DNA of 64,000 nt, from NCBI GenBank assembly GCA_965216565.1, contig OZ244170.1:5024001-5088000 (forward strand), in the 5' to 3' direction. Position 1 is the stretch's first letter. The number at the start of each line of letters is the position of its first letter. Shown in pieces: positions 18,942 through 32,093 of the stretch. The notes beneath the pieces were generated by a model. It did no database searches. It saw only the letters and a program-made list of their open reading frames with translations, and was not told where the DNA came from. The DNA is from Bythopirellula sp. GTDB taxonomy: Bacteria > Planctomycetota > Planctomycetia > Pirellulales > Lacipirellulaceae. The translations under genes and the position numbers were made by a program.

Positions 18942-19244
18942 GGAGGAATGGCAGACATTGTGTCAGCCAGACGGGAATCTTATCTTTCTAGCGACTCGAG
19001 AGATTAATACCACGGCGACAGCAGGTTATAAATCACTTGTGTCGACCCGAGTCCGTATGAATTAAAGGACGGGGTCGCATCACGCGTGGGGCAGGCTTCT
19101 TCGCTATAAGATAAGCATTTTTTTGTTGCGTGAGATTAACCGTATAGTTGACCCTTTAACCATTCATCCCCCAACAAACTAACTAATCAGTATCTCGCTT
19201 AGGATTAATTCGACCTCATGAGACGGGGAATTGGAGTAATGAAC

Positions 19245-20108
19245 ATGAAACATTGTCTGATATTGTCTATGTGCGCTGTCGCTCTGGCAGCTTTTGGCAT
19301 CAACGCCGCAAATGCCGGCGTCGATGTAGCTCTTAACCTAAACTACGTTGATCCCGCCGATCCCAACGACGGTGGATCTTGGACTCTGGTAGCCAAGTCT
19401 GACAATGCGAATGGCATCGCCGGACTAGTAGTACGAATTGAAGACGGCACAATTCCAGCCGCTGGAACCGTCGATGCTGGCATTGGCCATTCCATCAACA
19501 GCGGAGTCCTTCAAATTGGTACCTTCACCGATCCGAATGGCCCGGACTTCGTTGAATTTGTTTACGGTCAAGACCCGAATGCCGGGCTTGTCGGAAACGT
19601 CGGTCTTGCTGCTGCTGCATCCAACCAGGGTCCTGATCCTCTGGGCAATTCCGTCTGGGACGATGCAACAGTTATTGCAACTGGATCCTTCCTTGACGTT
19701 CGTCCGCTAGCTGTTCTGGCAGCTGCTACTGAAATTGATCCTAATGGAGCCATCATTGGTTCTAGTATCAACACTTTCAACATTCGCGGCGATTCGCTTA
19801 ACACGCTCGGGTTGGAAGATCCAAATGGTGCTGGTCTGCTCGCAGGTGATACAGACCGCGATAACGACGTCGACATTGCTGACCTTGGTACCTTGGCTGG
19901 TTCCTTGGCTGGTGGCGTAGGCGGATGGAACGACGGCGACACCGATGGTGACGGCGACGTTGACATTGCTGACCTTGGTGCTCTGGCTGCTAGCTTGGCT
20001 GTCGGTTCCGGCACACCTGCTGCAGTTGGTGCTGTTCCTGAGCCAACCACAGCACTGCTCGCTCTGTTTGGAGTTGCTCCTTGGGCTCTCCGCCGACGAC
20101 GAGCGTAG
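19245..20108 (+). CDS. PEP-CTERM protein with tandem dockerin/EF-hand-like repeats
   Basis: Signal peptide (ANA cleavage); GDTDRDNDVDIADL and GDTDGDGDVDIADL; VPEP-TM-RRRRA; GGAG 8 nt before ATG 19245. Confidence 0.9.
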   Translation: MKHCLILSMCAVALAAFGINAANAGVDVALNLNYVDPADPNDGGSWTLVAKSDNANGIAGLVVRIEDGTIPAAGTVDAGIGHSINSGVLQIGTFTDPNGPDFVEFVYGQDPNAGLVGNVGLAAAASNQGPDPLGNSVWDDATVIATGSFLDVRPLAVLAAATEIDPNGAIIGSSINTFNIRGDSLNTLGLEDPNGAGLLAGDTDRDNDVDIADLGTLAGSLAGGVGGWNDGDTDGDGDVDIADLGALAASLAVGSGTPAAVGAVPEPTTALLALFGVAPWALRRRRA

Positions 20109-20243: not shown

Positions 20244-20909
20244 ATGAAAAAACTTGTCGCACTAGCTATTGTAGCTACGCTTGTATTGGGTGTATCCAGC
20301 GCAAACGCGTTGATTATCACGGGTAACCTCACACCATCTGGTCAGGTAAACGACGCCTTCGGTGGCGGCTTGGGTGTGCTTGACGTGTACACAATCGTTG
20401 CCGATAACACGGTAGCTAACGGTGGTACAGGCACACCTGTAACTGCTATGGACCTCACGTTCGATGGTATTTTCGCCCAGGTGCAGAATGCTACCTTTGG
20501 AACGAACACCCCATCCCCGAAGCAATCTGACGTAGCTGCGTTTGGTCCTGATGCTCTTGCTCAAGACACACACTTCCTTCCAACGCTCGTTGAGCCAGGT
20601 CCACCGATTCCACCACCAACAGAAGGTATTATCACCAATGGGGCTCCCGGCAGTGGATTGGCCTCTGGACTACTCAGTAGCCAAGTTGCCATTGGTGGTT
20701 TAGACCAAGCTGAAGCTGTAGCAATCGCTCAGATTGTTGTTCAGGCTGGTACAGTACCAGCTGGTACCTTCCAAGGTACAATTGCTATCGCTGGAAACTC
20801 CACTCCAATTCCAGTCGCTGGAGTCATCGGCGTTCCTGAGCCAGGCACAATCGCTCTGGCTGGCTTGAGCCTTGTTGGGTTCTTGGCCAACCGTCGTCGT
20901 CTTGTCTAA
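20244..20909 (+). CDS. PEP-CTERM protein, unrecognised AQDTH-family domain (copy 1)
   Basis: MKK signal peptide, AQDTHF...PPTEG, VPEPGTIALAGLSLVGFLANRRR. Confidence 0.9.
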   Translation: MKKLVALAIVATLVLGVSSANALIITGNLTPSGQVNDAFGGGLGVLDVYTIVADNTVANGGTGTPVTAMDLTFDGIFAQVQNATFGTNTPSPKQSDVAAFGPDALAQDTHFLPTLVEPGPPIPPPTEGIITNGAPGSGLASGLLSSQVAIGGLDQAEAVAIAQIVVQAGTVPAGTFQGTIAIAGNSTPIPVAGVIGVPEPGTIALAGLSLVGFLANRRRLV

Positions 20910-20967
20910 GACAAGCAACGATATGAGTTAGATTGATCGGAGTTAGATCAGTCAACATGTAAGTTTC

Positions 20968-21005
20968 AAAGGTTCCCTCGTCTACGGGCGAGGGAACCTT
21001 TTTTT
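20968..21005 (+). terminator. Intrinsic terminator
   Basis: AAAGGTTCCCTCGTC-TACG-GGCGAGGGAACCTTT followed by a T run. Confidence 0.9.
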
Positions 21006-21210
21006 GTTTCTGCCCTAATTTTCTTCGACCCTCTTCTTGCACATTCAAAAGGCTATCTCTGAATCGGATTAGGGCGGTTTTGCAAGGGCATGATTTTCAT
21101 ATCCAAGAGTGTGTTGAAATGGCGTAAGGACGAATTGGTGGGCAGTGTCTAAAATGGAATACGGAGACGCGAAGAACTCGTATGGGTACAGGTACGGAGC
21201 AGAAGAAACT

Positions 21211-23229
21211 ATGAGTTCAGAAGATCAGGCATTCCTTCTTTCCCAGCTACGCTCAGTGCTAACAGTGTGCGTTGTATACATGCTGGCGGGTCTAACAGCG
21301 TTGTGTATCCAGTTGGAATCACGAGCGCAAACGTTCATTGACGTAACTGCAGGTGCGGGGATAAACCACACTCAAATTCCCGGCCCTCCAGGTCCATTCT
21401 CAGACCGAATGAGTGGCGGCGCAACAGCTGCCGACTTCAATGGCGATGGTTGGATCGATCTATTCGCGACGCGGATGAACGGGACCGACATGATGTACAT
21501 GAACAATGGGAACGGCACTTTCACCGATGTATCGGCCGGAGCTGGCTTTACCATACCGACGAAAACAAATGGGGCGGCAGCTGGCGATATCGACAATGAT
21601 GGCGATCTGGATTTGTACGTGACCTCCGTTTTTACCGATCAATACTATTTGTATATCAACGATGGCCTGGGAGGTTTCACCGAACAAGCTGTGGCTCGTA
21701 ATGCAGATGTTGACATCGACCCAGCTTTCTCGGGCAGTCGTCGTGGAAATAGTGTTTCGTTTGGAGATTACGATAGAGACGGCTACTTAGACATCCATAC
21801 CAACGACTGGGGACACCGTCTCACACCAGGTGGCGAGGTTCCAGACAGCTACACCGGTGCACGCCTGTTGAGGAACCTCGGTGGAGGCTCTGCCGGTTAC
21901 TTTGAAGACACAACGCTAGCCGCGGGGGTATCTCTAGCAACCGACCAGGCCTATACCGCGGATGGCACGATTTTTAAGGGAGTATGGTCGTTTTCGTCCC
22001 GCTTTGTTGATATCGACAAGGATGGTTGGGATGACTTGCTCGTGGCGGGAGACTTTCATTCCAGCCGGCTGTTTTGGAACAATGGAGACGGAACGTTTTC
22101 TGACGGTACGGCCACCTCGGGGGTGGCAACGGACGAGAATGGCATGGGATCGGCTGTCGGGGATTACGACGGCGATGGCGACTACGACTGGTTTGTTACC
22201 TCGATCCATGACCCAAACGAACCTTGCGACGATGGATCGTGTACTTGGGATGGATCGGGAAATCGACTCTACCGCTACGATGGCAATCGCCAGTTTAGTG
22301 ACCAAACAGATTCCGCTGGGGTACGCGATGGCGGCTGGGGGTGGGGGGCTGTGTGGCTCGATTACGACAACGACGGCGATCTCGATCTGTCGATGACCAA
22401 CGGCGTCGATTTCCTTGGCTACAACGATCCAGCCGACGAAGATTACCAATTCAATACCGATCAGATGAGACTTTGGCGGAATGATGGGGCGGGCAGCTTC
22501 ACAGAAGTCGCTACTGCCGAAGGGCTCACCGATACTGGTTCAGGCAAGGCACTGCTCAGCTTCGACTACGACAACGATGGCGACCTCGACTTGTTCAATG
22601 TCAACAACATTGGCGCACCGGTCCTTTATCGGAACGACACAATCAACACGAGCGGAAGCAATGGCAATGCCTGGCTGAAGATCGAAACGGTTGGCAACAT
22701 TAGCAATAAGGATGGCATCGGAGCACAAATTGTCATCGATCCCAATAGTAACGTCGCGGGTGACGAGATCTATCGCGATGTAAACGGTGGCAGCCATTAT
22801 CTGGCGCAGAGTGACATGACTGTGCATGTTGGACTTGGCAACCTGGCGGGTACTATCGATTCGATTTCCATCACTTGGCCCAGCGGTTATACGCAAGAGT
22901 TTACGAATGTGTCCCCCAACCAATTAGTCACGATTACTGAAGGGCTCTTAGCTGATTTCGACAACGACGACGATGTTGACGGAAGCGACCTGGCCTACTG
23001 GTCTTCCAACTACGGCATGTCCACGGGGGCAACGCGTGCCGACGGTGATGCCGATGGCGATGGTGACGTCGACGGCGAAGATTTTCTTCTTTGGCAGATG
23101 CAACATGGCATGTCAGTGAGCAGCGGCATGTCCCTGTCCGCGACAATTACGAGCGTTCCCGAACCGACCTCGGCTGTGCTGTTTGTAAGCATTTCGCTAC
23201 TTCACGCAGGTCGTCGGCGGAAAATTTGA
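21211..23229 (+). CDS. CRTAC1/ASPIC-UnbV family FG-GAP repeat protein with dockerin-like repeats and PEP-CTERM
   Basis: Seven DxDxDGxxD repeats, DGIGAQI...GGSHYLAQ...VHVGLG...ITWPSG UnbV segment, DFDNDDDVDGSDL, VPEP-TM-RRRK; start uncertain. Confidence 0.88.
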   Translation: MSSEDQAFLLSQLRSVLTVCVVYMLAGLTALCIQLESRAQTFIDVTAGAGINHTQIPGPPGPFSDRMSGGATAADFNGDGWIDLFATRMNGTDMMYMNNGNGTFTDVSAGAGFTIPTKTNGAAAGDIDNDGDLDLYVTSVFTDQYYLYINDGLGGFTEQAVARNADVDIDPAFSGSRRGNSVSFGDYDRDGYLDIHTNDWGHRLTPGGEVPDSYTGARLLRNLGGGSAGYFEDTTLAAGVSLATDQAYTADGTIFKGVWSFSSRFVDIDKDGWDDLLVAGDFHSSRLFWNNGDGTFSDGTATSGVATDENGMGSAVGDYDGDGDYDWFVTSIHDPNEPCDDGSCTWDGSGNRLYRYDGNRQFSDQTDSAGVRDGGWGWGAVWLDYDNDGDLDLSMTNGVDFLGYNDPADEDYQFNTDQMRLWRNDGAGSFTEVATAEGLTDTGSGKALLSFDYDNDGDLDLFNVNNIGAPVLYRNDTINTSGSNGNAWLKIETVGNISNKDGIGAQIVIDPNSNVAGDEIYRDVNGGSHYLAQSDMTVHVGLGNLAGTIDSISITWPSGYTQEFTNVSPNQLVTITEGLLADFDNDDDVDGSDLAYWSSNYGMSTGATRADGDADGDGDVDGEDFLLWQMQHGMSVSSGMSLSATITSVPEPTSAVLFVSISLLHAGRRRKI

Positions 23230-23302
23230 CAGGTTCTTAGCTAATGGACTAGACTCTGTTCCTGAGGGCAGTTCCGCAGGCTGACTGATTCACGGGGATG
23301 TC

Positions 23303-23983
23303 ATGCTGCGTGGCACAGTGATTCTATGCGTCTATTGTGTGCTCGGATCCGCTTACGGCTTTCAATCGTCGCGGGCGACAGGCCACCGTTTGCCAGCGTT
23401 TCAGGTCCCCGACACGCTGGGTGATTTGGGAGGTGGCATGTTGGACGTGTACCAGATTTATGTTCACGCTCCGGATTCGTTTACAAAGATCACGGCCTTG
23501 GTCGTCAGCTTTGAAGGCGAATTTGCCCAGGTGCAGCGAGATATCTTCGGCACGCATCTTCCGACGCCGCTGCTCTCCGATCTTGATGGCTTTGATCCGG
23601 CGTTCATTGCTCAGGATACGCACTTCGCAGCATCCCTCATCGTCCTCGGGTCTCCTATTCCCCCGCCGACCGAGGGCATGATTACACCCCCTTTGGGTTT
23701 TGATGGTAGTGGCTTAGCTCGAGACTTGAACAGCAGTCAAGTTGGCATTGCGGGGCCTGATCAGGCACCGACCGTGCTCGTCGCCCAAATTGTATTTCCC
23801 GCCGGCACGGTGAACGGAACTTTTGATGGGCTGTTTGCCGTCGCAGGCAACGCAGGTCAGTCTTTTTCATTTTGTGGTACCTTTGGTGTGCCCGAACCGA
23901 ATTCGGCGGTGTATGCCCTCTTGTCTACGCTTCTGTATGCTACCCACCGACGTCAGTTCTTTGACTGCCCGGGAGGATTGTGA
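23303..23983 (+). CDS. PEP-CTERM protein, AQDTH-family domain (copy 2)
   Basis: AQDTHF, PIPPPTEG, VAQIV, VPEP tail. Confidence 0.85.
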   Translation: MLRGTVILCVYCVLGSAYGFQSSRATGHRLPAFQVPDTLGDLGGGMLDVYQIYVHAPDSFTKITALVVSFEGEFAQVQRDIFGTHLPTPLLSDLDGFDPAFIAQDTHFAASLIVLGSPIPPPTEGMITPPLGFDGSGLARDLNSSQVGIAGPDQAPTVLVAQIVFPAGTVNGTFDGLFAVAGNAGQSFSFCGTFGVPEPNSAVYALLSTLLYATHRRQFFDCPGGL

Positions 23984-24073
23984 TAATTTGCACAGACGAC
24001 CCATTTCTAAGAAGCCAGACCGGTTGCCATGAATTCAAGCGGACAAAGACTACTATGTTGGACGGGAGTCGAA

Positions 24074-24763
24074 GTGAAGAAGTCCATTGCGGCCGTGACA
24101 CTTTTCCTATTGCTTACTCTGTGTGTCTCCAGCGTTCAAGCGTTGATCATTACTGGCCATTTTGCTCCTTCTGGCTTTACTAGTGATGCGTTTGGTGGTG
24201 GCCTGGGTGCTTTGGATGTCTATACCATTGTCGCTGATAATTCGATTACCAACGGCGGCACGGGTACAGCGATCACGGCCTTTGACCTGTCATTCTACGG
24301 CACGTTTGCCCAGGTGCAGAATGCTACGTTCGGCACGAATATCCCGTCGCCTAAGCGTGCCGATGTTGCGCCCTTTGGTGCTCAGGCGCTTGCTCAAGAT
24401 ACTCATTTTCTTCCTGCGTTACTTGAGCCAGGCCCACCAATTCCAGGTCCAACCGAAGGTGTGATTACCAACGGAGTTCCTGGCAGTGGCTTAGCTTACG
24501 GCCTAACCAGTAATCAAGTTGCGATCGCTGGTCCCGATCAGTCGGACTGGATCGCGATTGCTCAAATTGTTGTTCCAGCTGGTACGATCCCCGTTGGTAC
24601 TTTTGATGGTTCGATTGCCATTGGTGGCAACTCGACTCCAATTCCAGTCGCCGGAACAATTCCCGCCCCCGAGCCAGCAGCAGCGTTACTCGCGATGTTG
24701 TGTAGCGGTTGTTTAATGCTGCGGCGAGAGCGGAGCTTGGACGAGGCGCCAAAATCAATGTAG
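24074..24763 (+). CDS. PEP-CTERM protein, AQDTH-family domain (copy 3)
   Basis: GTG start after GGGAG; signal peptide VQA; APEP tail. Confidence 0.87.
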   Translation: MKKSIAAVTLFLLLTLCVSSVQALIITGHFAPSGFTSDAFGGGLGALDVYTIVADNSITNGGTGTAITAFDLSFYGTFAQVQNATFGTNIPSPKRADVAPFGAQALAQDTHFLPALLEPGPPIPGPTEGVITNGVPGSGLAYGLTSNQVAIAGPDQSDWIAIAQIVVPAGTIPVGTFDGSIAIGGNSTPIPVAGTIPAPEPAAALLAMLCSGCLMLRRERSLDEAPKSM

Positions 24764-26146
24764 GATCAGTTCGGTAAACAACTGCAGGTAGAGATAAGAG
24801 GATACAATCCAGTAAGTAGACATATCTCTTACGCTCCACTATTAATGACGCTCACGCTGCTGGGTGTGATGCCCCTTTTGCTTGTGCGCGTTGCGATAAA
24901 ACGAAGAAGTTGGGCATCTTCATGTAGGTGAATAGAATAGCTGGAGTTACTGATCAATTAGGAGGTGAGATATGCGGATCCCTTTGTCTATAGTCATTGT
25001 TAGTCTTGCTTTGTCGCTTTTTATGGCCGTTTCCTGTGCATACGCTTGGCGACTCACCGGGGCTCACTCCGGTCGTACTTATGATGCGTTCAATGGTGGC
25101 CTTGGGGCACTTGATGTGTGGACGATCGTTGCCGACAACTCCATCGCAAACGGTGGAACGGGGGCTCCCATTATTGGTTTTGACCTGACTTTCTGGGGCG
25201 AGTTTGTCCAGTTTCAAGATGGCAGTTTCGGTACAAATATTCCTACTCCCAGAAATTCTGATATCGTCAGATTTGATGCTCAGGCGCTCGCTCAAGACAC
25301 TCACTTCCTGCCTGATTTAGTTGAATTTGGTCCTCCAATACCACCTCCAACAGAGGGGGTTCTCTCTTTTGGTTATCCCGGTAGCGGTTTGGCCTCTGGT
25401 CTAACCAGCAATCAGGTCGCAATCGCTACTCACGATCAAGCGGCTGTTGTCGCGATCGCTCAGCTAGTGGTTCTAAGTGGCACTTATCCTGTAACTACAT
25501 TCGACAAGGAAGGGACTATCACAGTCGCTGGTGACCTAGGTCCCATTGTACTCACGTTTCCCGAGCCCTCGTCGGCGCTGCTCGCGATGTTGTGCAGTGG
25601 TTCTTTGATTCTGCCGCGGGGGCGTAGGTGAATAGTGACGTTCGACCGATGACCAAGTAGAATAGCATACAGCAACCCATCTCTGTGAGGGTAGATCCAA
25701 TAAAGCTCCGTCTTATGCTCGTGGCACTATTCCTAACGCTCACACTTGGCATTTCTAACACCAAGGCGTTAATCATCACTGGCACTCTTGCTCCTTCCGG
25801 CTCTGTTAGTGATGCGTTTGGTGGTGGCCTGGGTGCTTTGGATGTCTATACCATTGTCGCTGATAATTCGATTGCCAACGGCGGCACGGGTACAGCGATC
25901 ACGGCCTTCGACCTGACATTTAACGGCACGTTTGCCCAGGTGCAGAATGCTGCGTTCGGCACGAATATCCCGTCGCCTAAGCGTGCCGATGTTGCGCCCT
26001 TTGGTGCTCAGGCGCTTGCTCAAGATACTCATTTTCTTCCTGCGTTACTTGAGCCAGGCCCACCAATTCCAGGTCCAACCGAAGGTGTGATTACCAACGG
26101 AGTTCCTGGCAGTGGCTTAGCTTACGGCCTAACCAGTAATCAAGTT
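24181..26146 (+). repeat. Near-identical 340-bp direct repeat (24181-24520 and 25807-26146)
   Basis: Six differences by manual alignment; 24327-24520 is identical to 25953-26146. Confidence 0.9.
24972..25631 (+). CDS. PEP-CTERM protein, AQDTH-family domain (copy 4)
   Basis: Strong SD AGGAGG; signal peptide AYA; AQDTHF; FPEP tail. Confidence 0.87.
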   Translation: MRIPLSIVIVSLALSLFMAVSCAYAWRLTGAHSGRTYDAFNGGLGALDVWTIVADNSIANGGTGAPIIGFDLTFWGEFVQFQDGSFGTNIPTPRNSDIVRFDAQALAQDTHFLPDLVEFGPPIPPPTEGVLSFGYPGSGLASGLTSNQVAIATHDQAAVVAIAQLVVLSGTYPVTTFDKEGTITVAGDLGPIVLTFPEPSSALLAMLCSGSLILPRGRR

Positions 26147-26368
26147 ACGATCTCTGGTCTAGATCAGTCGGACGTGGTCGCGATTGCTCAGCTAGTCGTG
26201 CCCCCTGGTTCTTGCCAACCATTTAGCGGCGACGCGTTGATTGTCATCGCCGGTAATCCGAATCCAATCCCCGTGTCCCTTTTTCCAGTTTGTCCCGAGC
26301 CCTCGTCGGCGCTGCTCGCCCTACTGTGCAGTGGTTGCCTGGCCTTGCGATGCTCGAAGAAAATTTGA
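25685..26368 (+). CDS. PEP-CTERM protein, AQDTH-family domain (copy 5)
   Basis: Signal peptide TKA; AQDTHF; CPEP tail; start could be the downstream ATG (MLVALF). Confidence 0.85.
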   Translation: MRVDPIKLRLMLVALFLTLTLGISNTKALIITGTLAPSGSVSDAFGGGLGALDVYTIVADNSIANGGTGTAITAFDLTFNGTFAQVQNAAFGTNIPSPKRADVAPFGAQALAQDTHFLPALLEPGPPIPGPTEGVITNGVPGSGLAYGLTSNQVTISGLDQSDVVAIAQLVVPPGSCQPFSGDALIVIAGNPNPIPVSLFPVCPEPSSALLALLCSGCLALRCSKKI

Positions 26369-26420
26369 CAGCCTGAGGCCAATCAGCTAGTCTCCACAGA
26401 CTGACGGGTCTTTGCCTTCC

Positions 26421-26436
26421 TTGGCACCCTTATTGC
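26421..26436 (+). promoter_or_regulatory. sigma54 (-24/-12) promoter
   Basis: TTGGCACCCTTATTGC matches TGGCAC-N5-TTGC, ~140 nt upstream of ATG 26574. Confidence 0.6.
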
Positions 26437-26573
26437 CTAGATTATTTCTGCTTTGCCAGTGAACACCGCCTGAGATCCCTGCCGCGTAGCTAAGCTGCCT
26501 TCAGGGATGGCTATTGTCTCGGTTCTTCTAGTTCGCTGTTACTTTCACTGGTTATTTAGAGGAATGATGATTC

Positions 26574-27893
26574 ATGTCGAGAGTATGTTTGTTTGCCGGT
26601 TTTGTGCTTTGTATTGTCCATCTAGAGACAACTTCTCAAGCCCAGAGTGTTAGCGTATCCGGCCCGGTGATAGTTCCGGATTCATTGGGCGGCATTGGTT
26701 TCGAACTGGAGCAATATCGGGTGACACTGCATAGTGACGATCCGAATGTGAAGGTAACAGGATTTAACACTCAATTCGTTGGTACACTAGCACAAGTGCA
26801 GAATTTTGCTTTTAGCAATCCCCCGGCGCAACCGACACCTCAGTTTGAAGATGCCGTGCCATTAGGATTGGATGCGATCGCCCAGGACTCACATTTCGTC
26901 GGTGGCTTGATCATTGAAGACCCTCCAAATCTGCCTCCTGTGGAAGGGCCAATATTGAACCTTACGAAGCCTGACAGCGGATTAGCGGAGGGTCTTCTCA
27001 GCAATCTCGTCTCCATTGATCCTAACATACAAGCTCCGTCTCTTCAGATTGCCCAAATCGTACTAGCACCTGGTACTGTAGTGACCATGACTGGCGAAGT
27101 ATTTCTCAACGAAAACGAGGAGCCAATCACCCTCGAGCCTGTCCGGATTGGCGTACCCGAGCCAGGAAGCATCTTTCTTATCCTCCTGGGGAGCATGGTA
27201 TTCGCGCACCGAATATCGCGTAAATCAGCAACGGTAGCCAGTTTTTTCCTGGTTTGTTTACTTTTGAGTAGTCCGGTCACAGCGCAGAGTGTAAGCGTCT
27301 CGGGCCCGGTGATCGTGCCGGATTCACTGGGTGGCATCGGGTTCGATCTTGAGCAATATCGGGTGTCGTTGCACAGCGATGATCCGAACACATATGTGAC
27401 GGCATTCTCATTGATGTTTCACGGTCAGCTTGCTCAGGCCCAATTGGAATCTTTCGGACAAGCTCAGATGAGTGTGGAGCAACGGCATTTAGAAGGTTTC
27501 ACATCCGAACAATTGGCCCAAGATTCTCACTTGCTGGTTCAGCAAATCCTGTCAGGCTGTCCTTGTCCCGGGCCAATGGAGGGTACGATTCTGGATACGG
27601 ATGCTCCTGGCAGTGGGTTTGCTGCCAATCTCATCACATATCCTCAGGCAATTCCTGGGCCGTTGCAGACACCCTCCATCGAACTCGTTCAAGTCGTCCT
27701 AGCTCCTGGAACCAAGGTACGACTAACTGGAAGACTTGCAATCTCGGGCCATCCAGAATCGATCGAATTGCCAACGACGTACATCGGTGTCCCTGAGCCT
27801 GGAGCGATCGGCTTGGTATTAGCCTTGGTCGTGCTTTTGACCCCTTCTAAGCTAAGATCACGACTCCCGCAGCAGAGGTACCCAACGAAATAG
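26574..27893 (+). CDS. Tandem two-unit PEP-CTERM protein (AQDSH-family copies 6 and 7; internal and terminal PEP-CTERM)
   Basis: QSVSVSGPVIVPDSLGGIGF occurs twice; IGVPEPG occurs twice; second signal-peptide-like segment between the units. Confidence 0.88.
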   Translation: MSRVCLFAGFVLCIVHLETTSQAQSVSVSGPVIVPDSLGGIGFELEQYRVTLHSDDPNVKVTGFNTQFVGTLAQVQNFAFSNPPAQPTPQFEDAVPLGLDAIAQDSHFVGGLIIEDPPNLPPVEGPILNLTKPDSGLAEGLLSNLVSIDPNIQAPSLQIAQIVLAPGTVVTMTGEVFLNENEEPITLEPVRIGVPEPGSIFLILLGSMVFAHRISRKSATVASFFLVCLLLSSPVTAQSVSVSGPVIVPDSLGGIGFDLEQYRVSLHSDDPNTYVTAFSLMFHGQLAQAQLESFGQAQMSVEQRHLEGFTSEQLAQDSHLLVQQILSGCPCPGPMEGTILDTDAPGSGFAANLITYPQAIPGPLQTPSIELVQVVLAPGTKVRLTGRLAISGHPESIELPTTYIGVPEPGAIGLVLALVVLLTPSKLRSRLPQQRYPTK

Positions 27894-27944
27894 CCTGTAA
27901 AACTAGGCAAAAGGTACTTTTTCAAAGAATTTAACAAAAAAAGC

Positions 27945-27972
27945 TTGCGGAGTCGGAAAGCCCCATTACAAT
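27945..27972 (+). promoter_or_regulatory. Candidate sigma70 promoter with A/T-rich UP element
   Basis: TTGCGG-16 nt-TACAAT preceded by TTTTCAAAGAATTTAACAAAAAAAG. Confidence 0.45.
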
Positions 27973-28539
27973 ACAACTCAGACGAAGAAGCTGGTGCAGC
28001 CAGCAATTAATTCACCACCCAGTAAAGTGTGATCTAGTGACTTCCTAACAAAACGAATTGCTCCCTTCGGGTAGAGCTATCGTTTTGTTTCTATTTGACG
28101 GCTTATTCCTCTTAGCTTGCCGTCCCTTCTGGTGCCTTGGTTTGCCCAGTTTTATGTCGTTACTTTCTGCGACTCCAAACAGGCCAAATCACTGACCAGT
28201 TTTAACCGCGATTTTGCCGAGACGGCAGAAGAGTCGTTGCAAGCTTTTTCCACTGAGGACCGTAAAGCCTCGGAGCACTTACTAGCTTTTTCAAACAGTC
28301 ACACAACACATATCAGTCGATTACGACTTTAGACCATTAGAGGTTTGTCTTATGAGAAATTGAGAGGTTCGTGCGAGTCGAGCACAACGGTGTGCGAAGT
28401 AGACGAGTCACGAATCGGGGTAGCAAGATCAGGGTCGCCAGGAGGATGACCTGCTATTTTTCGACAAGGAAGAACAACTAATTTTTGAATAGAAAGCAAC
28501 ACCTTCGGGAGTTGCAAACCTCTTACTGGAGAACATCAC

Positions 28540-29541
28540 ATGAGAAAATCTATAACACTTACAATCGCAGCTTTTTCTTTCGCAGTACTATTTGCTGCCA
28601 ACTCGGCCCAAGCCCAAAGCGTCAGCGTGTCTGGTCCTGTATCAGTAGCTGACACGCTCGGCAACATTGGTAACAACCTTGACCAGTATCAAATCTTCTT
28701 GAACAGCGACAGTGGAGCAAACGTCACGGCGTTTGAACTTACTGTGACTGGTAGCCTAGCACAGGCACAGAACTTCTCGTTTGGCAATCACGTTCCTTCA
28801 CCATTACTAGCGGATGTCACTCCGTTTGGTGCTGGTGCAATTGCCCAGGACTCGCACATTGTTCCAGGTCTAGTTATTCCTGGCGCGCCAATCCCACCAC
28901 CAACTGAAGGTCTAATTACTCCCGATGTTGGAGCTCCCGGTAGCGGTTTTGGTAGCGATCTAATGACGAATCCTGTTGCTGTCGCTGGTCCCGACCAGGC
29001 ACCTTCTGTTAACGCTTTGCAGATTGTTTTGGATCCAGGTACCTTCGCTATCTTGACTGGTGAATTTGCAATCGCAGGAAATTCTGATCCATTCGTATTC
29101 GACGAAGTATGTATCGGTTCCTGTAATACCAGTAACACTCCACCCGTAGTCACCGATCTGTTCGCTGGTGAAGACTGGGATCAAGAAACTCAAGCCTTCA
29201 ACGGAACTCCTGCTAGCTATCAGTTGCAAGCTACAGACGCCGAGGATGGTGACGACGATAACCTAAGCTGGACCCTGGACGGTTTCACGGGACCTTTCGA
29301 TGCTGGTGGAAACCCAATCGCTGGTGCTGGAAACGGCAACCAGACTGTCAGTTCGACTGGCTTGTTTGAATGGGACCCAACTGGATCGACCAACGGTTAC
29401 TACTTCGCAGCTGTAACTGTCGAAGACTCCGGTGCCCTGACCGATAGCGGTATCCTCCGCGTTCAAGTTCCTGAGCCAAGCACCATGTTGCTCGCTGGAC
29501 TGAGCCTGGTTGGTGTATTCGCTCGCCGACGTAACAGCTAG
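28540..29541 (+). CDS. PEP-CTERM protein, AQDSH-family domain (copy 8) plus cadherin/Ig-like domain
   Basis: AQA cleavage; AQDSHI; NTPPV...LQATDAEDG...LSWTL...GLFEWDP...VTVEDSG; VPEP-TM-RRR. Confidence 0.9.
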   Translation: MRKSITLTIAAFSFAVLFAANSAQAQSVSVSGPVSVADTLGNIGNNLDQYQIFLNSDSGANVTAFELTVTGSLAQAQNFSFGNHVPSPLLADVTPFGAGAIAQDSHIVPGLVIPGAPIPPPTEGLITPDVGAPGSGFGSDLMTNPVAVAGPDQAPSVNALQIVLDPGTFAILTGEFAIAGNSDPFVFDEVCIGSCNTSNTPPVVTDLFAGEDWDQETQAFNGTPASYQLQATDAEDGDDDNLSWTLDGFTGPFDAGGNPIAGAGNGNQTVSSTGLFEWDPTGSTNGYYFAAVTVEDSGALTDSGILRVQVPEPSTMLLAGLSLVGVFARRRNS

Positions 29542-30095: not shown

Positions 30096-32093
30096 ATGAA
30101 TTTACAACTCATTTCTAGAGTAATTCTCACTTCAGTCGCGTTCATTGGTGCCATTCCATCTCATGCTGCCGACACGGTTGCCAGGCAATGGAATGAAGCT
30201 TTGCTGAATGCAATTCGACTAGATTTTCCGGCTCCGACCGTCCACTCGCGGAACCTCTATCACAGTTCTGCTGCGATGTACGATGCTTGGACGGTTTTCG
30301 ACAACACATCCGAGGGTATTTTCTATCAGCAGAAGCATACCGCACTAGATGTTGAAGCAGCAAGAAACGAGGCAGTCAGCTACGCCGCTTATCGAGTGCT
30401 GTCGCAGCGGTATACGCTGGCGGTTGATCCCAATGCATCACAAATGTTGTTCGACAACGTCATGTCCAGCTTGGGCTACGATCCGGGGGTTACGACAACT
30501 GTTGGTGATACGCCTGCCGCCATTGGCAACAGAATTGCGGAGCAAATCCTAAGTTCGCAGCTTAACGATGGCTCGAATGAGGCCAACGGCTATGCGGACG
30601 ATACCGGGTATGTACCCACTAACGATCCCATGATTGTAGATCACCCCTCAATTACAGGTCCAGGCGGAAATCCTCTGGCGAACCCCAACCGCTGGCAGCC
30701 TCTGTTTATCAATTCGGCTGTCACTCAAAACGGGTTACAGGGACAAGACTTGCAAGAATACATTGGCCCCCACTGGGGAAATGTCGAAACATTCGCATTG
30801 GGAAAGGTTGGCAACCCCCCAGGTCCACACAGTTGGTCGGCAATCGATCCCGGTCCACCTCCGGAGCTTAACGGGGTGGGAGACATTGAGTATCGACAAC
30901 AAACAGTTGAAGTATTGAGGTATAGCAATCTATTGGATCCCAATCAGGGAAACGGAACGCAACTGATTGACATTTCTCCTGCTAGCCAGGGGAACCGCAT
31001 CGTAGGCACTCAAAAGTTTCCTCTCAACCTTACCGGTAACGAAGGATATTCAGTGAACCCCTTTACCGGTCAGCCATACCAAGAGCAACTTGTGAAGCTT
31101 TCCGACTACGGGCGCGTGCTCGCAGAATACTGGGCGGATGGACCTGAATCGGAGACGCCACCCGGTCACTGGAATGTGATCGCCAACGAGGTGTCAGACA
31201 ATCCATTGCTTGAGAAGAAAATCAAAGGCAATGGCCCAGTGGTTTCAGATTTGGAGTGGGACATCAAGCTCTACGCTGCACTCAATGGTGCGGTACACGA
31301 TGCTGCTGTAGCAGCTTGGGGAACGAAGCGTGAATACGACTACGTCCGACCGATTACTAAGATTCGCTATCAGGGGGGCCTGGGACAATCTTCCGATCCC
31401 AACGACACGGCAACCTATCACCCAGATGGCTTGCCACTGGAAGCCAATCTTATTGAGGTGATTACTGCTAGTTCTATTGCTGAAGGTGGAAAACATCGCA
31501 ATGCGTATTTGAATGCCAATCGACTCTCCAACGGAGCTTTCGTCCCCAACCTGAATCTTACCGAGGCTCAAATGGTTGGAAAGATCGCAGTGAAAGCGTG
31601 GAATCATGAACCAATCGATCCCAACACGGAAGTGAGCGGAATTGAATGGATACTTTCAGAGAATTGGGTTCCTTATCAGCAGGACAACTTTGTTACGCCC
31701 GCGTTCGCGGCCTACGTATCTGGGCACAGCACTTTTAGCCGTGCTGCAGCCGAGGTGATGTCTTTATTCACCGGAAGTGAGTACTTTCCTGGTGGGTTGG
31801 GAGAATTAACTATTGGCATGAATGATTTCCTCGACTTTGAAATCGGACCCTCCAGTGACATCACTTTGCAGTGGGCAAAATATTCTGATGCTGCCGACGA
31901 AGCGGGGATTTCCAGACTCTACGGTGGAATTCATGTTGCTCCCGATGATTTTGCAGGCCGCATTATGGGTTCCACCATCGGTAAAGATGCATTCGCACTG
32001 GCGATGCGTTATTTCCAGGGTGTGCCCGAGCCGAGTGCTTTGCTGTTAGCAGGAATGGGGATCTTCGGCATGCTTGCTCGCCGGCAACGCTAA
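30096..32093 (+). CDS. Vanadium-dependent haloperoxidase / PAP2-superfamily enzyme with PEP-CTERM
   Basis: [26 protein letters not shown] vanadate/phosphate-site motifs; signal peptide; VPEP-TM-RRQR. Confidence 0.88.

Follow-up and report, generated by a model that had tools for sequence, protein, structure and literature searches.

The open reading frame at 26574-27893 is one stop-free frame of 439 codons that holds two complete units (positions are those of the window, the whole stretch of 64,000 nucleotides of Bythopirellula sp. DNA that was analysed). Judging from its sequence, we consider it on balance probable that the frame is an in-frame fusion of tandem PEP-CTERM genes and that its product would be a secretory polyprotein, processed by signal peptidase I and exosortase in the manner of the viral Gn/Gc precursor. 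An earlier, sequence-only reading of this DNA had proposed a polyprotein that releases two mature surface proteins in a 1:1 ratio. Polyprotein processing remains the best reading and is backed at the level of layout, in that both enzymes are encoded in the genome, the second signal resembles an N-terminal one and the in-frame junction is widespread; a strict 1:1 ratio, on the other hand, does not follow from sequence.

Results

Architecture of the two-unit reading frame

The frame lies on the plus strand, as do all of its features. It opens with the ATG at 26574, 10 nt downstream of a Shine-Dalgarno (SD)-like GAGGA recognized in the sequence (26559-26563), and closes with the TAG at 27891-27893. 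Signal peptide 1 (26574-26642, residues 1-23) is 23 residues long, with a cut predicted by a home-made matrix between SQA and Q, and is followed by the unit 1 cargo domain (26643-27152, residues 24-193; 170 residues, 17.9 kDa), a predicted beta-sandwich with weak cohesin or adhesin likeness. The internal PEP-CTERM tag (27153-27227, residues 194-218) consists of VPEP at 27153, a hydrophobic helix of 14 residues (27165-27206) and the 7-residue basic loop HRISRKS (27207-27227). Internal signal peptide 2 (27216-27284) shares its n-region with that loop and ends in PVTA at 27284; its predicted cut, between VTA and Q, is the top site of the matrix. The unit 2 cargo domain (27285-27788, residues 238-405; 168 residues, 17.8 kDa) is a paralogue of unit 1 with the same predicted fold, and sequence and tag scoring place the terminal PEP-CTERM tag, with VPEP at 27789, a basic tail and the stop codon, at 27789-27893 (residues 406-439). 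The signal peptides, VPEP motifs, HRISRKS loop, PVTA end and glutamine starts picked out by the sequence-only reading were all recovered in place. Its argument that the topology is consistent also held, with the tag helix running out-to-in, the basic loop inside and the signal helix running in-to-out, as the well-established positive-inside rule would have it. This topology also accords with section 5 of Haft 2006 (PMC1569441).

In the mechanism that we propose, signal peptide 1 would send unit 1 via Sec into the periplasm, and the internal PEP-CTERM helix would stop transfer and leave the basic loop in the cytoplasm. The next helix, acting as an internal signal peptide, would then restart export, so that the two helices form a hairpin. 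Signal peptidase I would cut between VTA and Q (A237 and Q238), freeing unit 2 with an ordinary terminal PEP-CTERM tag, and exosortase would cut at both PEP motifs, the weakest step of the scheme, to yield two beta-sandwich proteins of ~18 kDa and a leftover two-helix membrane peptide. Since every signal needed for processing is already in place, it is likely that fusions of this kind are tolerated and, in other families, have been retained. Counting against the polyprotein reading are the short loop of just 7 residues and an internal tag that is weak for this genome (G000), at the 7th percentile of its terminal-tag range.

Sorting signals and processing enzymes

With both TIGR02595 (22.2 bits for the whole protein, cut-off 16) and PF07589 (24.7 bits, cut-off 20.7), the best stretch of the frame was the internal tag. 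The terminal tag ranked at the 15th percentile of the terminal-tag range of G000, so that both tags of this frame are low. The frame has the PEP motif, hydrophobic helix and basic cluster of the class. An extreme C-terminal position, with no helix between signal and tag, was found only for the second tag, the first having a tail of 245 residues behind it that includes the second hydrophobic segment. Because the first tag departs from this defining C-terminal position, the frame is, as classified from sequence, a variant of a PEP-CTERM substrate and not a plain member.

Signal peptides were scored with a home-made position matrix derived from 171 N-terminal signals of G000 PEP-CTERM proteins, which were themselves scored in-sample (median 18.9, 75th percentile 21.8, 5th-25th percentile range 11.8-15.7). 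As controls, mature regions gave a median of -0.3 and a 95th percentile of 6.5 (n=206), and terminal tags a 95th percentile of 10.5. Signal peptide 1 scored 13.4 at the cut between SQA and Q and 16.3 two residues earlier, within the training range of N-terminal signals. Signal 2 provided the top site of the whole protein, between VTA and QSV, with a score of 21.6, at about the 75th percentile of the 171 N-terminal signals. It has a basic n-region (RKS), an h-region (SFFLVCLLLS) and small residues at -3 and -1 in V-T-A before Q, as expected from the -3/-1 rule of signal peptidase I; its internal position sets it apart from signals that lie N-terminally behind their own start codon. The mature start QSVSVSGP is common to unit 1, unit 2 and the paralogue at 28540, in each case directly after the signal, and signal 2 opens with xRKS where that of 28540 opens with MRKS; a DNA alignment of these two signals was too weak to prove descent. 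G000 encodes exosortase at one locus (PF09721, E 1.5e-54; TIGR04178 and PF09721 both over cut-off), and signal peptidase I scored over the TIGR02227 cut-off in two adjacent frames. In E. coli, searched as a control, no exosortase was found.

A possible internal start, the ATG at 27195-27197 (plus strand), is the sole in-frame ATG, GTG or TTG between the tag and the second hydrophobic segment. The GGAG that precedes it by only 1 nt makes a poor ribosome-binding site, and RNA folding around the ATG was not unusual (z 0.30). No Rfam match was found within positions 14000-38000 of the window. A search for promoter-like sites found none, and one weak terminator-like hairpin (27236-27254) was within shuffle expectation (6 found, mean 2.6).

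The tandem array and the origin of the fusion

The frame belongs to a tandem family at 20244-29541, seven genes with eight domain copies that stand amid other PEP-CTERM genes; a neighbour of the array is, we presume from its sequence, thrS. Five stand-alone one-domain paralogues lie upstream on the plus strand within 20244-26368 (20244-20909, 23303-23983, 24029-24763, 24972-25631 and 25685-26368), each with a signal peptide, the domain and a PEP-CTERM-like end. The closest stand-alone paralogue (28540-29541, plus strand) combines the same domain with an Ig-like domain and PEP-CTERM. In the paralogue tree, units 1 and 2 are sisters (98/97 support) and 28540 is sister to the pair (92/93); the longest end branch is that of unit 2 (0.99). 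GC content is 48-55% across the array vs about 54-57% in the flanks, and the array genes at 24029 and 25685 share 89% DNA identity over 300 nt. Among 101 genomes of the host's family, the array family occurred in G000 only, save two weak single-unit hits.

Units 1 and 2 are 48% identical overall, and measured against the family-invariant columns of the other nine members, unit 2 keeps 18/23 and unit 1 18/22. Their first 34 mature residues are identical at 32 of 34 positions, with 14 synonymous and 2 non-synonymous codon differences (dN/dS ~0.022, for a stretch that had been chosen because it is conserved). Identical residues with changed codons numbered 14/32 in this stretch vs 40/50 in the rest (p=0.0016), and this lower silent divergence makes partial gene conversion between the units likely, as judged from sequence, at a tract of 108 nt (26639-26746 and 27281-27388). 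The tract begins at the signal cleavage site and is 83% identical between units, compared with ~44% for the rest. The proposal of the sequence-only reading that both units are under selection is borne out insofar as the low dN/dS speaks for constraint on both domains; it does not place that constraint after the fusion, since the stretch was picked for conservation and has lower silent divergence. Nor does dN/dS give a test of selection on the fused gene, since no orthologue was found. Outside G000, a search of 41 relatives gave no orthologue, only one weak hit to a single unit; the 101 family genomes gave none apart from two weak single-unit hits, and none was found in JGI metagenomes or 185,579 species genomes. 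Among 5.8 billion proteins of 241-769 aa, with the best 8000 candidates scored, only the protein itself and the paralogue 28540 were recovered, and ENA yielded just four single-domain or partial relatives.

Spacers between the other array genes measure 73-646 nt and mostly carry an SD at normal spacing; none is left at the junction of units 1 and 2. This fusion probably arose in a lineage-specific tandem array via loss of the stop, spacer and start between neighbours. The DNA at 27215-27222 can be read as a start codon with one extra base, and a stop in another frame follows at 27235, so the fusion may be very recent. It could have been created by a deletion or by a one-base event, either of which is compatible with the sequence.

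The cargo domain

AlphaFold2 predicted a beta-sandwich for both units, with pLDDT values of 76.0 (unit 1) and 75.6 (unit 2). The top fold match was in each case the cohesin 2vo8 (unit 1: Z 7.8, rmsd 3.6, 117 aligned; unit 2: Z 7.5, rmsd 3.6, 116 aligned). Cohesin and adhesin-domain matches (VIA for unit 1) had Z 6-7.8, with none at or above the Z of 8 that separates kin from common folds, shared 5-16% identity and were tied with unrelated beta-sandwiches. The cargo had no significant Pfam, PDB-sequence or Foldseek match and no Atlas hit of at least 0.9 (best 0.89). The likeness to cohesin modules and to the Ig-like folds of MSCRAMM/Als-type adhesins thus concerns the cargo only, where they are the top fold matches of both units; unlike established kin, these matches stay below Z 8 at low identity. 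From these models, a cohesin-like or adhesin role of the array domain would be a lead only. Dockerin-like motifs occur in 88 of the 236 terminal-PEP frames of G000, including the neighbours at 19218-20108 and 21145-23229, and the array domain together with such neighbours gives a model-based hint of a cohesin-dockerin surface network. A further PEP-CTERM protein nearby (30096-32093) has motifs that, by eye, suggest a vanadium-haloperoxidase/PAP2 relative.

The tag and internal signal junction in other proteins

The layout recurs widely, in line with the suggestion of the sequence-only reading that internal PEP-CTERM tags followed by a signal segment be sought across Planctomycetota, and the junction type is kept in frame in two other families. 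A junction profile built from 21 sequences gave 3131 matches at E<=0.001 and 207 at 1e-10 among 1.84 billion representatives. Each of the 150 matches listed (150/150) had at least one internal tag; together they held 333 junctions, with one junction in 23 proteins, two in 92 and up to nine in a single protein. A second hydrophobic segment was present in 313/333 of these junctions vs 8/301 control windows, a difference that is partly built in by the profile. The linker contained a Met in 109/313 junctions of the matches listed (37/183 among short linkers) and none in 204/313. In 12 proteins that were scanned, cargo varied from unit to unit, with unrelated lectin-like, kelch, peptidase and FGE domains, and the source names of 10 proteins read Planctomycetales, Pirellulales or Planctomycetota. 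One Planctomycetales protein of 2500 aa (P0005, MCA9247495.1), annotated only as a PEP-CTERM protein, has nine internal tags, most of them followed by a signal-like segment. A family of ~1350-1500 aa with two internal tags, and hence three units, was seen in many genera of the host's family (L049, L050, L051, L101, L110 and L115-L130); its scanned member P0040 carries laminin-G-like domains.

With the best 64 candidates scored per genome, 60 of 89 host-family genomes had a match at E<=1e-8; the match was stop-free in 45/89, of which 31 were outside the training set. All 16 of the 16 non-training loci inspected were true internal junctions. Elsewhere in the phylum, 1 of 200 genomes matched at E<=1e-9 (28 candidates scored per genome, with a family-biased profile), and the layout is by this profile concentrated in the host's family. 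An SD-led in-frame start was found at 15 of the 44 distinct junctions with DNA vs 137/218 N-terminal signals (p=0.0007, a value that overstates the difference since relatives are not independent). The remaining 29/44, among them that of the frame at 26574-27893, have no SD-led start, and 22/44 have no ATG of any kind. In the literature searched, we came across no account of an internal PEP-CTERM tag with a second signal behind it; subscription papers and supplements may hold a mention.

Conserved and split relatives of two further internal-tag genes

Only 3 of the 231 PEP-CTERM-like motifs of G000 have a tail of >100 aa, and all three (3/3) lead on to a segment resembling a signal peptide and then to a second unit with a tag of its own, which argues that the layout is not due to chance. 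Two further internal-tag ORFs of this genome lie on the minus strand. P0002 (L009:4785-7733 = G000:C1:4897784-4900732) encodes 982 aa in two related units, each with a dockerin-like module, and P0003 (L010:4941-7661 = G000:C1:2868940-2871660) encodes 906 aa, in which a domain of unknown type is joined to an M14 zinc carboxypeptidase.

P0003 is fused across the junction in G000, G004, G013, G016 and G017 (63-78% identity; in G017 a frameshift follows further on). In G010, G023 and G024 it is split, stop and start overlapping in ATGA, so that both states are visible. The ATGA overlap of the split relatives shows, at the level of sequence, a putative route from translational coupling to fusion. 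The linker has no ATG in 4/5 fused copies; that of G013 has three, all without an SD, and the internal tag of this copy is degenerate, with its PEP motif lost. For P0002, 12 non-redundant genomes have the fused and 5 the split form, at ~37-56% identity and with several linker lengths; one further locus, which stops short of the junction, is left out of this count. An SD and ATG persist in the linker of most fused P0002 copies, which makes internal initiation possible in this family; the L098 copy does not keep them. In two of the split copies, the two parts lie in the same frame. Five diverged P0002 orthologues with an unconserved linker all retain P-E-P. Split orthologues in both families indicate that fusion is not required.

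Fused and split copies were interleaved in the trees, whose forks are open. Two changes are needed, though there may have been a single origin, and the change may have run in either direction. In the P0002 tree, the L093 row is a match to unit 1 that was selected on score, and its only role is that of outgroup. Upstream of that match, L093 (plus strand) has another internal tag, with an SD and ATG directly after the basic cluster, in a gene beside a split P0002 relative. Sixteen fused ORFs were located by way of their cargo, and in these the internal and terminal tags scored alike (mean 44.9 vs 42.4, p=0.23). Internal tags score as high as terminal tags in the same ORFs and are not decayed, contrary to the suggestion, in the cited part of Haft 2006 (PMC1569441), that long-tailed tags may be non-functional.

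Viewed from sequence, the frame at 26574-27893 is a young, unconserved example of a well-supported class, and the P0002 and P0003 relatives are for that reason better bench targets. PEP-CTERM-rich planctomycetes may follow a general, virus-like polyprotein strategy, in which a modular junction of tag and signal would give two to ten surface proteins per chain and would fix their co-export without separate starts; the present frame would be a newly born member in an expanding array. We regard the case for this wider proposal as evenly balanced.

Alternative explanations

The sequence-only reading had pointed to read support across the junction as a safeguard against a hidden stop, and such support was obtained. 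Logan contigs of X1-X4 (depths 19, 31, 29 and 94), four runs of one sample that may be the source of the assembly, run across the junction without a single substitution or gap. X5 and X6, both from other studies, are partial: X5 covers 26972-27207 only and X6 27044-27217 only, each with 0 differences, and the whole junction is spanned by X1-X4 only. Mismatching letters in read contigs proved to be unit 1 aligned onto unit 2 and were rejected as variants. Two further runs, which may derive from RNA, yielded no match. A sequencing or assembly error that conceals a stop or frameshift between two ordinary genes would require little, since a one-base difference at 27217 would yield two overlapping genes, and the four spanning runs come from one sample, which may be the source of the assembly itself. 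Against this stand the base-for-base agreement of X1-X4 at a site with no homopolymer, the X6 contig from another study, which reaches 27217 without a difference (its end base, and so weak support), and the conservation of the junction type elsewhere. Since four runs of one sample span the frame without difference, a hidden stop at the junction is unlikely, and error as an account of the whole frame strikes us as very improbable.

The other rivals accept the frame and differ on what becomes of it. One is that processing is only half completed: signal peptidase would free unit 2, exosortase would reject a tag that precedes a second helix, and unit 1 would remain anchored in the inner membrane through a hairpin of two helices. 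Known tags do lie at the extreme C-terminus, 87% of those tallied in the cited part of Haft 2006 having <10 extra residues (PMC1569441), the internal tag here ranks at the 7th percentile, and that of the G013 copy of P0003 lacks the PEP motif. Set against this, the internal tags of the 15 other fused ORFs come as close to the consensus as terminal tags do, P-E-P has stayed invariant in the five diverged P0002 orthologues despite their unconserved linker, and a mid-chain GPI signal was functional in the report cited (PMC2288913), by eukaryotic analogy only. We consider half-processing unlikely, while giving it more weight than the rivals that follow. Unit 2 could instead be made mainly by re-initiation at ATG 27195, an in-frame codon that would provide unit 2 with a normal 30-residue signal peptide, with read-through merely tolerated; the SD and ATG kept in most fused P0002 copies, the two copies split in frame and the Met in the linker of 109/313 junctions among the matches listed would fit. 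This ATG, however, has its GGAG only 1 nt away, while most array genes have a normally spaced SD; SD-led starts and ATGs are absent from 29/44 and 22/44 junctions; and signal 2 would in any case be present in the long product, which would have to be dealt with. We judge this rather improbable, and hold an accidental recent fusion of no benefit to be improbable to the same degree. In the latter, a small mutation would have joined array neighbours and unit 2 would be poorly made, mis-sorted or decaying, as might be expected of an array confined to G000 among 101 family genomes (two weak single hits aside), a gene with no orthologue found, a junction compatible with a one-base event and a unit 2 whose end branch is the longest of the paralogue tree (0.99). 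Yet unit 2 is intact, keeps 18/23 family-invariant residues, has a predicted fold as good as that of unit 1 and bears the stronger of the two signal peptides, and in two other families junctions of the same kind have lasted along long branches.

Discussion

Should the polyprotein reading be true, exosortase tags need not be C-terminal, bacteria would own a repeatable way of turning a single gene into several exported proteins, and hundreds of PEP-CTERM proteins now annotated as 'multidomain' would be precursors. As a natural linker, the junction might also be put to use in the co-secretion of proteins. A conserved example in a named strain is available at locus L092, titled Bythopirellula polymerisocia Pla144. 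In the passages cited on PEP-CTERM/exosortase systems (TIGR02595, PF07589; Haft 2006, PMC1569441; Haft 2023, bioRxiv 10.1101/2023.06.07.544157), exosortase cleavage is inferred from archaeosortase and genetics and not directly mapped; with its chemistry still open there, a precursor-product pattern would offer a direct assay for this cleavage.

The frame resembles substrates of the PEP-CTERM/exosortase (EpsH, Xrt) system in that each unit has a signal peptide, cargo without a known homologue, and a PEP motif with helix and basic cluster, in its tandem paralogue expansion and in the exosortase of the genome. It differs in the 245 residues behind its first tag, among them another signal peptide and another unit with its own tag, and in the two extra membrane helices between first signal and last tag. 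An internal signal peptide in a bacterial precursor has a forerunner in FbcH of Bradyrhizobium japonicum, a cytochrome b-c1 precursor from which one gene reportedly gives two proteins by cutting at a signal-peptidase-type site. FbcH is a single respiratory-complex case, whereas the PEP-CTERM junction is a modular element that links unrelated cargo and occurs up to nine times over. Envelope polyproteins of flaviviruses and hepaciviruses likewise have anchor, loop and internal signal in series.

That a normally C-terminal anchoring signal can work mid-chain, with further protein behind it, is seen in the cited part of the report on engineered DAF-hGH, where a GPI signal did so (PMC2288913); this construct is engineered and eukaryotic and depends on another enzyme, and it goes no further than to show that a signal of this type can function in an internal position. 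The nearest parallel is the phlebovirus Gn/Gc precursor, in which, in the portion of the source cited, a membrane anchor, a cytoplasmic loop and an internal signal peptide likewise stand in series in one frame and separation by signal peptidase, predicted for the present frame, has been demonstrated (PMC4974537). The likeness is one of layout, with no homology claimed: the frame described here is bacterial, its cleavage is a prediction, and each of its units, unlike Gn and Gc, has a sortase-type tag to be cut again.
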